From a virus (Duplodnaviria; Heunggongvirae; Uroviricota; Caudoviricetes), in IMG/VR virus record IMGVR_UViG_2690316269_000012: a stretch of 35,124 nucleotides of DNA; one strand, 5' to 3'. Shown here piece after piece: positions 1 to 35,124 of the stretch. Numbering within the stretch: the first letter of the stretch is position 1; each line of letters starts with the position of its first letter. Position numbers and translations under genes: made by a program. The notes below the pieces were generated by a model. It made no database searches. It saw nothing but the letters and a program-made list of their open reading frames with translations, and had not been told where the DNA came from.

Positions 1-1002
1 TTACCCTCTATTGTCAAAAGGGTTCAATTCAACAGCAGCCTCTAAATGACCTGGAGCAAAATGCGCATAACGCATAGTCATTTTTATATCGCTATGCCCC
101 AGTATTTTTTGCAACACAAGAATATTTCCGCCCCGCATCATAAAATGACTGGCAAACGTGTGACGTAGCACATGAGTTAATTGCCCATCAGGAAGCTCGA
201 TCTTCGCTCTCTTAATTGCAGCGTCAAAAGCCTCATAACATGGTGAAAATAGCGCTCCTCGTTTTTGAGGAAGCATAGCCTGCAATTGAGGTGAAATCGG
301 TACAGTGCGGTTCTTCTTTCCTTTAGTTTTAACAAATGTGATTCGACCGGGCAGTACTTGAGATTGCTTTAATCCTTCAGCTTCACTCCACCGAGCACCA
401 GTCGCAAGCCCAATACGGACAACAACCCCCAAATCTTTATTCCGTGACTCATCACACGCAATCAGAAGGCGTTCAATCTCATCTACATACAGAAACGCCA
501 GTTCCTTTTCTTCCTCACGAAACTTGCGAATACCAGTCAGGGGGTTTTCACCAGACCACTCCCCAAGGCGCTTCAGTTCGGCAAAAACAGCATGTAGATA
601 TGACTGCTCGCGATTAACGGTTGCTTCACTAAGTTTTTTCTTCCCCTTGGGATTCCATTCTCCTGATAGCCTTCTTTCCCGATAAGTAGCAAACATATTT
701 TTGTCAAACTGAGAAGCAAATGGATCCCCCAGCCTGGAACAAATCGCCTCAAGTTTGACTTTGCGCTCTGCACCAGAGGACAAGGTTTTACCGTACATCT
801 CAAACCAACGAGCAATCAACTCAGAAAGACGAGGACCAGAACCATCTTGAAACTCGTCTCCAACTCTACTATTCATTAAACGGCGCTCATAAGAGAGCGC
901 CTCACTTTTTGTCGCAAACTGTTTACGAATGCGTTTTCCCGATGCCCCGTAGGGATAACATTCGCAAAGCCATTTACCTGATGGAATCTTACGAACCGAC
1001 AT
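1..1002 (-). CDS. int: tyrosine site-specific integrase (P2-type)
   Basis: 333-aa ORF with C-terminal tyrosine-recombinase motifs (GARWSEA, HVLRHTFASHF, LGHSDIKMTMRYAHF); terminal gene of the repressor-led minus-strand operon, as in P2. Confidence 0.93.
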   Translation of the reverse strand: MSVRKIPSGKWLCECYPYGASGKRIRKQFATKSEALSYERRLMNSRVGDEFQDGSGPRLSELIARWFEMYGKTLSSGAERKVKLEAICSRLGDPFASQFDKNMFATYRERRLSGEWNPKGKKKLSEATVNREQSYLHAVFAELKRLGEWSGENPLTGIRKFREEEKELAFLYVDEIERLLIACDESRNKDLGVVVRIGLATGARWSEAEGLKQSQVLPGRITFVKTKGKKNRTVPISPQLQAMLPQKRGALFSPCYEAFDAAIKRAKIELPDGQLTHVLRHTFASHFMMRGGNILVLQKILGHSDIKMTMRYAHFAPGHLEAAVELNPFDNRG

Positions 1003-4985: not shown

Positions 4986-7822
4986 GTGCGTTTGCATGGA
5001 GCTGGAATGAACCACGGCCAGCCATTGATCCGGCCAGATTTACGGAGCGCAGGCAGGAAACTGAAACCGACCTGCAACGCGCCATCCGTTACTACCTTGA
5101 GGCAAACAAAAGGGCACAGGAAGAACAGGAAGCGAAGGAAGAAGCCTTTTTCGCACAATCCACCGTGGGTAAAAAACTCATGGCATCCCTTGAGGAAGCC
5201 GGACAGCGTGAAAAGCTGGCACAAAGCATCATCAGCAAGCGTCAGGCAACAGAACAAGACCCGGTGGCCCGTGCTTTTGCCACACTGAAGGTGCTTCCCG
5301 TTTATCTGCGTGAACCTCTGAGCCGCCACCTCTCTTTTCTGCGCAAGAAGCAGGAAGCCGATCGTCAGAAAGGCAAAAAGAGCTGGCAGGCTGAACGCTA
5401 CGCGCGCGGAACCCTGCGCAAAATATTCGAACGTCTGGACCGCACCGACAGCCGCTGGCTGACACCGGGCTATCGCTCCCTTGCCGGACGCGAACGCCTG
5501 GACGATTTGCTTTACCTGCCGCAGCTCAACAAACACCAGATACAGACGCTGGCCACCATGACGGCGGCGATGTTCAGTGGCACTTTTGAAAAACTCTGCG
5601 ATGGCTTTGGCGCGACCGATGGCGAGCTGACCATGGATGTAACGCTGAAGGCGTATCAGATGCTGGCCCGCATGGCGTTACACCTGCACGCTATGCCTCC
5701 ACATTATGACGCTCTGACAACAGACAAAGACCGGAGGAATGAACCGGACACGGAGCTGCTGCCGGGCGCAATCCTTCGCCTGACCTGTGCGGAATGGTGG
5801 AAACGCAAACTGTGGCTGTTACGTTGCGAGTGGAGAGAAGAACAACTCCGCGCCGCCTGTCTGGTTTCCAGAAAAACATCACCCTATCTGAGCCAGGACG
5901 CGTTAAGCGAGTTTCGCGCACAGCGCGAGAAAACACGCGATTTCCTGAAAAGTTTCATGCTGGAAAACGAAGACGGGTTCACGATTGATCTCGAGACAGT
6001 GTATTACGCGGGAGTAAGTAACCCGATTCACCGTAAGGCAGAAATGATGGCCACCATGAAGGGGCTGGAACTTCTGGCCGAAGCCCGTGGCGACAGAGCG
6101 GTGTTTCTGACTGTCACCTGCCCGTCAAAATACCACGCCACAACAGAGAACGGTCATCCGAATCCCAAATGGAACGGGGCCACCATGCGCGACTCCAGCG
6201 ATTACCTGGTTAACACGTTTTTTGCGGCGGTCCGCAAGAAACTGAACCGCGACGGCCTGCGCTGGTATGGCATCCGCACGGTGGAGCCTCACCATGACGG
6301 CACCGTGCACTGGCATATGATGGTCTTTGCTCATCCGGAAGAAATCGACACCATTGTGTCCCACACCCGCGATATTGCCATTCAGGAAGACCGCCACGAG
6401 CTGGGCAATGATATTACTCCGCGCTTTAAGGTGGAGTATGTCGACGGCTCAAAAGGCACGCCAACCAGCTACATCGCCACCTACATCGGAAAGAACCTGG
6501 ACAGCCGCGCCGTGGATGGCATCGACCCGAAAACGGGCAAGCCACGCGTTGACCACGAAACCGGAAAATCAATGGCCGAGAGCGTGGAACGCGCCATCGG
6601 CTGGGCACGCCTTCACCGGGTCCGCCAGTTCCAGTTCTTTGGCATCCCCTCCCGTCAGGTATGGCGTGAACTCCGCCGCCTTGCCAGCCAGATGGCACGC
6701 AACCCGGAAGGCCCACAACGGCTGAAGGATGATGCAATGGATGCGGTACTCGCTGCCGCTGATGCCGGATGTTTTGCCACCTACATTGAAAAACAGGGTG
6801 GCGTACTTGTTCCGCGCAAGGACTACCTGATTCGCACAGCCTACGACCTCGCAGATGAGCTGAACGATTACGGCGAACAGAGTGTACAGATTTACGGGAT
6901 CTGGTCGCCATTCATCGGGGAATCCTCCCGTGTGTGCACGCATCCGGATAACTGGAAGCTGGTAAGACGTAAACCGGAAGCGGAAGACAGCGCCCGCGAA
7001 AATGGTTTTGACCTTCAGGGCGGCCCTGCCGCCCCTTGGACTCGTGGCAATAACTGTCCCCGTGTACAGGAAACAGGCAACAACGGGACAGAACAGCCGG
7101 AAGAACGGCCAGCACCGTGGCCGCAGCTTCCTGACGGCGTTGAAGTAAATGAATGGATGCGCTCACTGAAACGGCACGAACGCCGGGCGCTGATGCGTTC
7201 GCTTCGTGACAAACAGGCAAAAAACAGCAGCGATGAAATGCAGAACTGGACACAGAGCCGCAAACAGCAGCGGCCTTTGCCTGATAACCACGAGTTACTC
7301 GCTAAAGAATGGCGGGAGTCTGCTGAATCTCTCGGCCTGCATATCGGTGAACAACAGATGCAGCACCTGTTACGGGGCGGCAGTCTGTACGTTGACGGCA
7401 GCATCATTGCACCGCAGGGATTTGAAATTGTACGCAAACCGGATACCCGCCCGGACAGCCGAATCACGCAGCTCTGGCAGCGTCTGAGCCGTAATCATGG
7501 CGTAAGCAGCACGGAGATCCGCCATAACCCGGTCGCCAGCTATCTGGCACAGCTGGGGGCATCAGACCCTGAAGCCGCCGCACGCCTGGCATCCACACTT
7601 CAGCAGGACCAGAACACCATGAAAACACCCGTTACCGTGCTTTCTGACATGCTGCGCGCCATCCGCGACGCAGAGCACGCACAGAGAATCAGTGAAACCA
7701 CTGAACGCGCCAGCCGCAAAGCAGACCTGCTGCGGGGTGGCCTGACCAGTGGAAACAAAAAACAGACAGAAACGGGACTCACGAATCCCGTAAATGAGCA
7801 AAAAACGCGCAGCGATATATGA
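4982..7822 (+). CDS. A: rolling-circle replication initiator endonuclease (P2 gpA family)
   Basis: 946 aa from ATG at 4982; HUH-type motif (GTVHWHMMVF) and overall resemblance to P2 gene A product; longer than P2 A (about 761 aa) with a C-terminal extension. Confidence 0.88.
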   Translation: MSAFAWSWNEPRPAIDPARFTERRQETETDLQRAIRYYLEANKRAQEEQEAKEEAFFAQSTVGKKLMASLEEAGQREKLAQSIISKRQATEQDPVARAFATLKVLPVYLREPLSRHLSFLRKKQEADRQKGKKSWQAERYARGTLRKIFERLDRTDSRWLTPGYRSLAGRERLDDLLYLPQLNKHQIQTLATMTAAMFSGTFEKLCDGFGATDGELTMDVTLKAYQMLARMALHLHAMPPHYDALTTDKDRRNEPDTELLPGAILRLTCAEWWKRKLWLLRCEWREEQLRAACLVSRKTSPYLSQDALSEFRAQREKTRDFLKSFMLENEDGFTIDLETVYYAGVSNPIHRKAEMMATMKGLELLAEARGDRAVFLTVTCPSKYHATTENGHPNPKWNGATMRDSSDYLVNTFFAAVRKKLNRDGLRWYGIRTVEPHHDGTVHWHMMVFAHPEEIDTIVSHTRDIAIQEDRHELGNDITPRFKVEYVDGSKGTPTSYIATYIGKNLDSRAVDGIDPKTGKPRVDHETGKSMAESVERAIGWARLHRVRQFQFFGIPSRQVWRELRRLASQMARNPEGPQRLKDDAMDAVLAAADAGCFATYIEKQGGVLVPRKDYLIRTAYDLADELNDYGEQSVQIYGIWSPFIGESSRVCTHPDNWKLVRRKPEAEDSARENGFDLQGGPAAPWTRGNNCPRVQETGNNGTEQPEERPAPWPQLPDGVEVNEWMRSLKRHERRALMRSLRDKQAKNSSDEMQNWTQSRKQQRPLPDNHELLAKEWRESAESLGLHIGEQQMQHLLRGGSLYVDGSIIAPQGFEIVRKPDTRPDSRITQLWQRLSRNHGVSSTEIRHNPVASYLAQLGASDPEAAARLASTLQQDQNTMKTPVTVLSDMLRAIRDAEHAQRISETTERASRKADLLRGGLTSGNKKQTETGLTNPVNEQKTRSDI

Positions 7823-33103: not shown

Positions 33104-34243
33104 GTGGGAAACAATAAAGTGAAATTAGGAAGAAATGATAAGTGCTGGTGTAATTCAGGACTTAAGTATAAAAAGTGCCATCTTGGTCGAGATCGTGAAA
33201 CTCCGGTATCCAAAGCCGAGGCACTGAAATTTTCAAAGTCTCTCTCGCAGAGAAAGGCATGTTATGCGCCAGCATCCATGCACGAAGATTGTGATAAACG
33301 CATCGTTCAGGCGCATACGATATCTAAGAGCAGTAGCCTTAAGGCGATCGCCGACTCCAGCAATCACGTCATGGGGGTGATAATGAACTTAGCAAGCCTG
33401 ATGAGAAACAACGGAAAATGGCTTCCCGAGAAGATCGGTATCAATCAGGCATCCACTTTTACAGGATTTTGTGCAGTTCATGACAGAATCTTATTTTCAT
33501 GCCTAGAGAACGAAAAATTTACAGGCACGGACGAGCAGTGCTTTGCCTTAATGTTTCGTTCATTGTCTAAAGAAATTTATGCCAAAGAAGGGGGAGTGCT
33601 ATCTTCTGATTTTGCTAAAAATGCCGATAAAGGAAAGCTACAAGTTGAACAGTATTATATTCAGAAATTAATCGACCAGCACCAAAGTGGCTTAAATGCA
33701 GCAATAATTGAATTAAATAATCTTAAAACTAGCCTCGACCGCATCCTACTTAGCAGGCAATTTTCAGAAATTGAAAGTGTTATCTTCACTTTTGCAGAGC
33801 CTTTACCAATTGTAGTTTCGTCAATTCTTTCACCGGAGAGGGATTTCGATGGGACCAAAATTCAGGATTTGAGCGATCTTACAGTGTCGGCGGAACAAGT
33901 ATGTTTCAATGCTTTTTCCTGCGGAGGTAAGGGATATGTAGTGTTCAGTTGGCTGAGAACTTCAACAATTATCAGACGTTTTATACGGACACTAATTAAG
34001 ATCCCAGCTAACAGGATGTTCAATACCCTTCTGTATTTTTTCTTCACAAAGGCCGAAAATACATATTCATCCCCTGAGTGGTGGGACAGGCTCAGTGATA
34101 AACAGCGAGAGAATATCGGCAACATGATTATGTCAGGGGTTGAATTTTTTGGCATACCTACATCACAGGTTGATCATTCCGTTGATTATAACGCCGCTGC
34201 ACTTGAAGAGATAACATGCAGCAACAACGAAATTTGCAGCTGA
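33104..34243 (+). CDS. SEC-C-motif protein with uncharacterised C-terminal domain (cargo)
   Basis: 379 aa (GTG at 33104, or in-frame GTG at 33119); N-terminal LGRNDKCWCNSGLKYKKCH matches the SecA-type SEC-C zinc motif; remainder unrecognised; AT-rich island between D and ogr. Confidence 0.6.
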   Translation: MGNNKVKLGRNDKCWCNSGLKYKKCHLGRDRETPVSKAEALKFSKSLSQRKACYAPASMHEDCDKRIVQAHTISKSSSLKAIADSSNHVMGVIMNLASLMRNNGKWLPEKIGINQASTFTGFCAVHDRILFSCLENEKFTGTDEQCFALMFRSLSKEIYAKEGGVLSSDFAKNADKGKLQVEQYYIQKLIDQHQSGLNAAIIELNNLKTSLDRILLSRQFSEIESVIFTFAEPLPIVVSSILSPERDFDGTKIQDLSDLTVSAEQVCFNAFSCGGKGYVVFSWLRTSTIIRRFIRTLIKIPANRMFNTLLYFFFTKAENTYSSPEWWDRLSDKQRENIGNMIMSGVEFFGIPTSQVDHSVDYNAAALEEITCSNNEICS

Positions 34244-34532
34244 ATGTTTACATGCTGTTAGAAAAAGCGGGCTGAACAATCATTTCGGGATTGTAACAGA
34301 TAAGATGGCACTGCCCGCTTGCTTCCCGATATGCACCTCAGCCAATAAACTTATGTAAGCAACCGATTTCCATTTATGCGGAGGTTATCAAAGTTGTTGG
34401 AGTTGCGAACTTCCGCTCTTCGCACAAAGCGTACCGCTAGGTTTGATTGTATTCTGGCTGCGCAAACTGTCAGTTGGAGTCTGAGCTATTACAACTTAGA
34501 ATAGCGGCAGCACCACGTTAAGGGAGGTCGCT

Positions 34533-34793
34533 ATGTTCCGTTGTCCGCTTTGTGGCGCATCTGCCCGAATCCGCACCAGTCGTCCGGAAAACGATTCAAA
34601 CACTGTGCGGCAAAAGTATTACCAGTGTAACAACCTGGAATGCGGCGTATGCTTCTCAACACTGGAAGCTTTCCATAAATTCACATCAAAACACGCCTCC
34701 GGCGTTCACTCTTCGGAAGGTATCCCGTGGCATGAGCTGCCAGCTTCACACAGGGGAAACAATCAGATGAGTTTGCCTTTACCTCAGAATTAA
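34533..34793 (+). CDS. ogr: zinc-finger late-gene transcriptional activator (Ogr/Delta family)
   Basis: 86 aa; MFRCPLCGASARIRTSR...YYQCNNLECG matches the Ogr C2-C2 zinc-finger pattern. Confidence 0.88.
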   Translation: MFRCPLCGASARIRTSRPENDSNTVRQKYYQCNNLECGVCFSTLEAFHKFTSKHASGVHSSEGIPWHELPASHRGNNQMSLPLPQN

Positions 34794-34983
34794 CAGGCAG
34801 AATTGCCGGAGTAACAAAAAAACGATAGATTACCCGCGGGTGCCTTTCGGCTGATGGTCGGAGGAATACCCGAAGGCCGGATGTGGAAAGGCCCCGGAAA
34901 ACATTTCTGTTTAACCGAGGCCCTAACATATCTACCTTAAGCAAGTGATAGGTTAGCGCCTCTCCAACAAAGGAGCAAGCGCT

Positions 34984-35124
34984 ATGTCGCAAAAATCGCT
35001 TACAGCCATCACGTTCTGCGTGACGGTAATCCTCATCATCTGGATGCTACACGGTTCGCTGTGTGAAATACGGATGAGCTTCTGGGGAGCGGAGTTTGCG
35101 GCGTTCTTACAGTGTAAGCAGTAA
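34984..35124 (+). CDS. Hok/Gef-family type I toxin-like small membrane protein
   Basis: 46 aa; N-terminal TM helix then SLCEIR...AEFAAFLQCK, matching the Hok-family signature; stop codon is the last three bases of the window. Confidence 0.5.
   Translation: MSQKSLTAITFCVTVILIIWMLHGSLCEIRMSFWGAEFAAFLQCKQ

Follow-up and report, generated by a model that had tools for sequence, protein, structure and literature searches.

A probable hok/sok-type type I TA module, without a conserved mok, between ogr and attP of a P2/186-like prophage

Introduction

The hok/sok (parB) locus of plasmid R1 is the paradigm for modules of this kind. Its sok promoter reads TTGCGC-17-TATCCT. Most of the chromosomal hok loci of E. 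coli K-12 are said to be inert. The mechanism by which the two ends of the R1 mRNA pair through the tac and fbi elements has been summarised, and in this system the synthesis of Hok needs translation of mok up to the hok SD (PMC9841398). In prophages, experiments established hokW-sokW of the Stx2 prophage Sp5 as a type I TA system, which led to faster lysis and to about 2-fold more progeny after induction; this study, the only demonstration of a role of a prophage hok/sok module for its phage, also mentions a partial exclusion of T4 by R1 hok/sok (Takada et al. 2021, PMC8621323). More generally, hok was found to be enriched in prophages by a survey that does not analyze mok, sok, the mRNA elements or the position of hok in P2-like phages (Escalera-Maurer et al., 2026 preprint, bioRxiv 10.1101/2025.08.07.668861).

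Here, we analyzed a 35,124-nucleotide stretch of DNA, called the window below, from the IMG/VR virus record IMGVR_UViG_2690316269_000012. An initial annotation had noticed a Hok/Gef-like gene at its right end and had left open whether this gene is phage cargo or the first host gene. We describe the peptide, the leader and predicted fold of its mRNA, a putative antisense RNA and the position of the locus relative to the attachment sites.

Results

The window stops at the hok stop codon

The window begins with the stop codon of the integrase gene int (1..1002, minus strand) and ends with that of hok at 35124, so that both att sites are missing from it. A tRNA scan of the whole window found no tRNA gene. 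The last codon of the window is the hok TAA, and the 3' UTR of the hok mRNA is outside. Because the module is cut at this codon, its 3' elements are only visible in an identical chromosomal flank. We thus took the 3' flank and the att mapping from the E. coli chromosome NZ_CP027577.1, which is 100% identical over the last 625 bp, and all 3' elements reported below were read in that chromosome and not in the window itself. Extending the sequence to the right in this way, as suggested in the initial annotation, gave access to the missing 3' hairpin, fbi box and terminator, located 10-121 nt beyond the window end, and to the att repeat. The same end was found in 19 of 80 related IMG/VR loci, whose contigs stop exactly at the hok stop, suggesting that the right end of the window is a gene-boundary cut made by a prophage caller. 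Prophage callers often truncate the module at this point, with loss of the fbi box and the terminator.

The coordinates of the features are collected in Table 1. The initial annotation correctly placed hok immediately beyond ogr, the final core phage gene ahead of the hok module, with the window ending at the hok stop. Between the late-control gene D and ogr, an ORF of 379 aa (33104..34243, plus strand) carries an N-terminal SEC-C motif (PF02810); its RefSeq name is 'YecA family protein' and PADLOC matches it at the level of the SEC-C motif only. Since P88 and Chuche have no gene at this spot, the 379-aa ORF is a second cargo gene. The best-matching genome, NZ_CP051738.1 (strain SCU-105), is 100% identical to positions 1-25000 of the window in two pieces that span about 1 kb more than the query, indicating that its prophage has an insertion relative to the window.

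Table 1. Coordinates of ogr and of the elements of the hok module in the window.
Feature	Position	Strand	Remarks
ogr, late-gene activator	34533..34793	+	PF04606 Ogr_Delta, 52.4 bits; RefSeq: ogr/Delta-like zinc finger protein
Putative hok promoter	34803..34831	+	-35 TTGCCG (34803-34808), 17-nt spacer, -10 TAGATT (34826-34831); read from the sequence
hok mRNA 5' leader, 146 nt	34838..34983	+	RF01794 match begins at model position 1 at 34838
tac-like element	34838-34852	+	First 15 nt of the leader, GGGUGCCUUUCGGCU; invariant in 12 loci; predicted to pair with the 3' fbi box
Putative Sok-like antisense RNA, ~57 nt	34886..34943	-	Position follows from the promoter; ends inferred, +/- a few nt
Putative sok promoter	34950..34978	-	-35 TTGCTC (34978 down to 34973), 17-nt spacer, -10 TAACCT (34955 down to 34950)
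Predicted hairpin sequestering the hok SD	34955..34983	+	anti-SD CCUCU(C) 34959-34965 pairs with SD AAGGAG 34970-34975
hok CDS	34984..35124	+	ATG start, TAA stop, 46 aa, MSQKSLTAITFCVTVILIIWMLHGSLCEIRMSFWGAEFAAFLQCKQ; predicted Hok/Gef-family membrane toxin

The 46-aa peptide is a Hok of its own lineage

The identification of a Hok-family type I toxin gene of 46 aa, first made from the motifs SLCEIR and AAFLxCK, was borne out by profile searches. The peptide matches Pfam HOK_GEF (PF01848) from position 5 to position 42 of the 42-position profile, with 30.1 bits (E 3.7e-7) against a curated cut-off of 22, and PHROG 251 with 82.8 bits (E 2.5e-23), and BLASTP aligns it to R1 Hok with 39% identity over 31 aa (E 2e-7). 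The best NCBIfam model, the HokA equivalog NF007290, gave 35.8 bits, under its cut-off of 89, and the Hok subfamily NF007279 gave 23.6 bits, under its cut-off of 73. Taken with the Pfam, PHROG and BLASTP matches, the two missed NCBIfam cut-offs indicate a Hok-family peptide that forms a lineage of its own. The peptide shares a C-terminal ending of the AAFLxCK type with K-12 HokA, but the NF007290 score led us to reject it as a HokA orthologue. No match was obtained in a PADLOC scan of the Hok peptide. The PHROG 251 label, 'MokW-like host killing', is misleading, as it designates the Hok ORF itself and not a Mok.

As read from the sequence, a hydrophobic stretch spans residues ~6-22, followed by SLCEIR (25-30) and AAFLQCK (39-45). 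Seven residues, M1, C16, T18, L30, C31, E32 and E41, are conserved in >80% of Hok peptides (bioRxiv 10.1101/2025.08.07.668861); their counterparts in the 46-aa peptide are M1, C12, T14, L26, C27, E28 and E37, the register being shifted by four in our own reading due to a shorter N-terminus. Pairwise dN/dS values among relatives were ~0.2-0.45 in all pairs having any non-synonymous change, which points to purifying selection on the hok ORF. The hok SD is strong, with 8-nt spacing to the start codon. Between relatives where the ORF drops to 67% identity, the leader is still ~80% identical. In the Stx2a-converting phage Stx2_EH2011 (LC645443.1, locus L010), a small deletion creates a premature stop in the 46-aa hok (ATGCCGCAAAATAG), with the leader and the fbi box remaining intact.

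The module is real, and it is already known, annotated and catalogued, so that its presence here is an ordinary finding. The window peptide is identical to RefSeq WP_000078920.1 ('Hok/Gef family protein') and to the P88 peptide (gp52). Many E. coli chromosomes match the last 625 bp of the window at 100% identity, and in these the ORF is WP_000078920.1. With coverage of the 625-bp query set at 80% or more, the ogr-hok stretch was detected in 1179 of the 5426 complete E. coli genomes; at 93-97% identity, it also occurs in the P2-like phage records P88, Chuche, Shae_phiSM, PhiR44_2, 500465-2, P884B11 and 520873. In the classification of the preprint mentioned above, the peptide belongs to Hok cluster 72 (representatives 72_1621 and 72_1589), from which it differs in nothing material at the protein level; 72_1621 is one residue apart (V15A). 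According to Table S2 of that work, 72_1621 and the Stx-phage type 72_1589 are among the peptides cloned for the overexpression toxicity assay, in which 42 of 45 tested Hok peptides were toxic; three are named as non-toxic and the cluster-72 peptides are not among them (bioRxiv 10.1101/2025.08.07.668861). By elimination, rather than by direct reading of a table, 72_1621 would thus be toxic. Literature searches on phage P88 with hok, or on hok/sok with abortive infection and prophage, returned nothing.

The leader and the predicted fold of the mRNA resemble those of hok mRNAs

The initial annotation had also expected a structured hok-type leader upstream of the ORF, in agreement with a match to Rfam RF01794 at 34838..34994 on the plus strand (46.7 bits, E 8.9e-9, GC 0.52, model 1-157), whose score is under the gathering score of 59. 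All tested relatives of the same clade also scored under this threshold, at 35.6-50.5. As a control, an R1-type plasmid locus gave 87.2 bits on the hok strand, with a match ending at the hok ATG. This orientation indicates that RF01794 models the hok leader and that a match on the plus strand is the expected one. The Rfam label 'sok' is therefore misleading, the family being built in the hok-mRNA sense with matches landing on the toxin strand.

A generic promoter and terminator scan called just the terminator and the 3' hairpin and neither the hok nor the sok promoter, so both promoters were assigned by conservation instead. We aligned 12 loci from P2-like phages, Stx phages (module beside lom) and plasmids. 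The hexamers of the putative hok promoter, which has 8 of 12 consensus matches and went uncalled by the generic sigma-70 scan, are kept in these loci as TTGxxx ... TAxATT, and their distance to an invariant GGGTGCC does not change, with 6 nt between the -10 and this motif.

The consensus fold of the 12 loci pairs 98.1% of cells, as opposed to 37-43% after sliding of the partners, and 11 compensatory pairs are counted against 0-3 in the slid controls, bearing in mind that the loci are related and that a single alignment served both to predict the structure and to make the counts. Four of the compensatory pairs fall in a long-range helix between the Sok-target region and the 3' UTR and four in the 3' protective hairpin. 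The 407-nt transcript (locus L001 4339-4745 of NZ_CP027577.1) has an MFE of -175 kcal/mol (z -7.7). In the MFE fold, the partner of mRNA nt 1-15 is the GGCUGAAGUGGCACCC stretch, with its core GGCACCC located 59-65 nt past the window end; the fbi box occupies 50-65 nt past this end in the NZ_CP027577.1 flank. This end pairing (helices 1 and 2) is 98-99% paired in the 12 loci with one-sided changes only. Since the tac/fbi core helix is invariant and only its extension varies, one-sidedly, the helix provides no covariation evidence of its own, and the predicted end pairing is consistent with the model without being independently proven. Further 3' elements are a GC hairpin, GACGGGGG...CCCCGUC, 10-33 nt past the hok stop (helix 15, covarying) and an intrinsic terminator 87-121 nt past it.

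The hairpin sequestering the SD (helices 8 and 9) is 100% paired in the 12 loci, yet shows almost no variation, and is formed in the predicted folds of both the full-length and the 3'-truncated mRNA. Upon 3' truncation, the 5' end is predicted to refold into a local hairpin and nt 102-116 are freed. This predicted refolding and the covarying GC hairpin are an anatomy consistent with the R1 paradigm, in which exonucleases process the mRNA from its 3' end to an active truncated form and RNase III cleaves the duplex with Sok. When P2-like and Stx-phage copies are compared, the homology starts ~20 nt before +1 (~34817) and stops at the last base of fbi. These limits, from promoter to fbi, look like the footprint of a self-contained mobile module.

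A putative antisense RNA faces the leader

A sok-like promoter, which the initial annotation had proposed to look for, and a terminator were recognised on the minus strand as putative motifs conserved in the 12 loci. The complement of the promoter, AGGTTAGCGCCTC, is invariant in these loci and in 27 distinct IMG/VR leaders; the -35 is TTGACT in the Stx-phage copies. The predicted antisense RNA would be composed of a single-stranded 5' tail, a hairpin (GGGCCUCGG...CCGGGGCC) and a final UUUCC, with a folding energy of -26.2 kcal/mol (z -3.9) and a hairpin stem (helix 5) kept in the 12 loci. This layout agrees with that of R1 Sok as described in PMC9841398. Its 5' tail is complementary to mRNA nt 102-116, and the predicted freeing of these nucleotides on 3' truncation fits the R1 rule that Sok targets the processed mRNA.

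No mok frame is conserved

None of the plus-strand frames that open with ATG, GTG or TTG in the window runs across the hok start, and the homologue of the R1 mok AUG reads AUA (34928-34930), with stops after it. The mok-like overlapping frame that the initial annotation had proposed to search for is thus absent here, nor is it conserved in the clade. The check covered the plus frames of 13 loci and of 80 IMG/VR loci, the latter being 98-100% identical in protein and adding variants of context and leader rather than depth. A canonical-start frame across the hok ATG is missing in 53 of the 80, and in 19 such a frame starts at a leader ATG. We rejected mok as a conserved gene, as this minority read-through frame toggles with indels of 1-2 nt in the leader, a pattern unlike the evolution of coding sequence. 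This lack of a conserved mok is the sole departure from the R1 paradigm; combined with the R1 requirement for mok translation, it means that either translation control differs here, Hok being translated directly and Sok using a different route, or native expression is poor.

An invariant AUG in GGAUGUGGAAAGG at 34881, just 5' of the Sok-complementary region, opens a leader ORF (34881..34940, plus strand) of 19 codons in the window. This ORF is shorter in the Stx-phage copies and runs through the hok start in pC-Ec2-KPC. It may be a degenerate mok or simply conserved RNA.

Poor native expression would be expected if hok were an inert or decaying relic, in which the motifs persist and the peptide is never made from the native mRNA without mok. 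The lack of the frame that R1 needs, the SD kept in a hairpin in both predicted folds, and the existence of decayed copies (the premature stop of Stx2_EH2011 and a deleted remnant near attR in NZ_CP027577.1) are all compatible with this idea. However, we consider it improbable, since the dN/dS values hold across the clade, phages of two unrelated families and plasmids share the promoter, tac, fbi, SD, AUG and sok promoter either unchanged or with compensated changes, and the unit that has moved runs exactly from the promoter to fbi. The leader identity of ~80% in relatives whose ORF drops to 67% is a further argument against a relic. The strong, well-spaced SD, the frequency of the ogr-hok stretch among complete E. 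coli genomes and the presence of the V15A variant among the peptides cloned for a toxicity assay where only three other peptides were non-toxic argue in the same direction.

hok is located inside the phage, before attP

The initial annotation had placed attR within 34794..34983. This interval turned out to be that of the hok leader, together with the putative hok promoter and sok gene, and no repeat or tRNA supports an att core there. In NZ_CP027577.1, we mapped two direct copies of a 121-bp repeat, one at 106 bp from the int stop and the other at 942 bp from the hok stop, both on the outer side (L004 2094-2214 and L001 5568-5688). The repeat is composed of 66 nt of 3'ETS-leuZ and the 3' 55 nt of the tRNA-Leu gene leuZ, whose 3' end is the integration site of closely related prophages. 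The right boundary of the prophage is thus corrected to an attR at leuZ, ~0.9 kb further right. 3'ETS-leuZ is a known small regulatory RNA. As the att repeat covers nearly all of it, lysogens have a second copy of this sRNA sequence at attL.

Were hok the first host gene beyond attR, the prophage would end between ogr and hok, as could be imagined from a window that ends at hok and an ORF that follows the last core phage gene. This is highly unlikely: the repeat copies flank int and hok, and in the empty site of K-12, yecA is followed directly by 3'ETS-leuZ and leuZ, without hok. Moreover, the same 121-bp stretch is present in phage records, where that of mEp390 annotates it as attP, hok is found between ogr and int in the phage records P88, Chuche, 500465-2, P884B11 and 520873, and ogr is directly upstream of hok in 78 of 80 IMG/VR loci. 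The record of Chuche, a linear genome of a phage isolated from the environment, has the order D-ogr-hok-com/methylase-int, and in a P2-like element on plasmid pC-Ec2-KPC the gap between hok and int is just 366 bp. Since sequenced phages carry hok between ogr and attP/int, it is phage cargo. Of the two options left open by the initial annotation, the cargo one therefore stands and the host-gene one falls. Within the phage, hok is the final conserved gene ahead of attP.

Beyond it, the content varies. Homology between the NZ_CP027577.1 locus and P88 or Chuche ends at the hok terminator, and of the stretch between this terminator and attR, the att stretch alone matched phage records, indicating that the cargo in between is strain-specific. 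This chromosome also has a decayed second hok-like locus just inside attR and beyond the window (L001 ~5300-5480). It has a sequence resembling a promoter, TTGCCT...TAGATT, then a leader sharing ~72% identity with that of hok in Chuche and, after it, a fragment encoding ...GSLCEIRRS...; this locus was found neither in the K-12 empty site nor in the phage records.

Discussion

The locus combines a peptide of the Hok family, a leader related to those of hok mRNAs, a conserved and covarying predicted fold with pairing of the 5' and 3' ends, conserved antisense motifs and a location in the cargo region. It is very probably a self-contained hok/sok-type type I TA module that belongs to the accessory cargo of a P2/186-like prophage (Peduoviridae, Xuanwuvirus P88-like), where it sits between ogr and attP. 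That the small ORF is there by chance, in a region encoding nothing but a regulatory RNA or in a structured terminator or 3' UTR of ogr, has next to no probability: short ORFs are common here (21 of at least 20 aa overlap 34000-35124), but the family-profile matches come from three independent libraries and the frame is kept at dS up to ~1.3 behind a strong, correctly spaced SD.

The module resembles R1 hok/sok in several respects. Both have a small single-helix toxin with an SLCEIR core, and an mRNA of about 400 nt with pairing of the 5' end to a 3' fbi, a protective 3' hairpin and a hairpin sequestering the SD, these features being predicted here. Both leaders match the same Rfam model, here under the gathering threshold. 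The putative antisense promoter is of the same form and lies between the target region and the hok start. Unlike R1 Hok, the peptide has 46 aa instead of 52, with a shorter N-terminus, and unlike R1 hok/sok, the module is phage-borne instead of plasmid-borne and has no mok frame, the homologous start codon being AUA and the frame closed. HokW of Sp5, suggested as a direct homologue by the PHROG label, was rejected, since the primers of the hokW-sokW study show a HokD-like peptide (PMC8621323). HokW, HokD-like (cluster 35) by these primers and by the table of Escalera-Maurer et al., is a peptide of 51 aa that starts with MKQQKAM and ends with ...DYESEK, and is encoded at another Sp5 locus; the 46-aa relatives in Stx phages adjoin lom, a different site from that of hokW.

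By analogy with plasmid R1 hok/sok, we propose the following mechanism, in which the ends of the transcripts, the instability of Sok, the processing at the mRNA 3' end, the trigger and any benefit for the phage are inferred. A weak constitutive promoter would produce a stable mRNA of ~407 nt starting at 34838. In the full-length mRNA, the first 15 nt would pair with the fbi box, its Sok-target region would pair with the 3' UTR, and burial of the SD and AUG of hok would leave the molecule inert. Slow 3' trimming back to the protective GC hairpin would then remove fbi, upon which the 5' end would snap into its local hairpin and leave nt 102-116 single-stranded. The short, presumably unstable antisense RNA (~34943 down to 34886, minus strand) would bind these nucleotides, and the hok mRNA would be silenced or destroyed. 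If antisense synthesis stops, the Hok peptide would be made, insert into the inner membrane and kill or lyse the cell. Possible triggers are loss of the prophage, shut-off of transcription by an infecting lytic phage, and prophage induction. Regarding the role of the module, and as a rough apportioning, prophage retention or exclusion of competing phages seems to us the probable one; help with lysis at induction would be a distinctly less likely role, and the least likely of the three is that the module has no current role.

The lack of a conserved mok leaves room for another form of control. We tentatively suggest, while considering it somewhat less probable than its opposite, that hok loci of cluster 72, in P2-like phages, in Stx phages beside lom and on some plasmids, have lost mok and that Sok acts on them independently of it. 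IstR-1 acts on tisB by occluding a ribosome standby site. Similarly, Sok could occlude nt 102-116 if these serve as a standby or entry site for ribosomes bound for the buried hok SD; alternatively, it could block the invariant AUG at 34881, which opens the leader ORF of variable length. The lack of a conserved mok is the only point of this locus that may merit follow-up, as a regulatory variant. If control is indeed mok-independent, this clade would be a natural variant of the textbook translational coupling of hok/sok.
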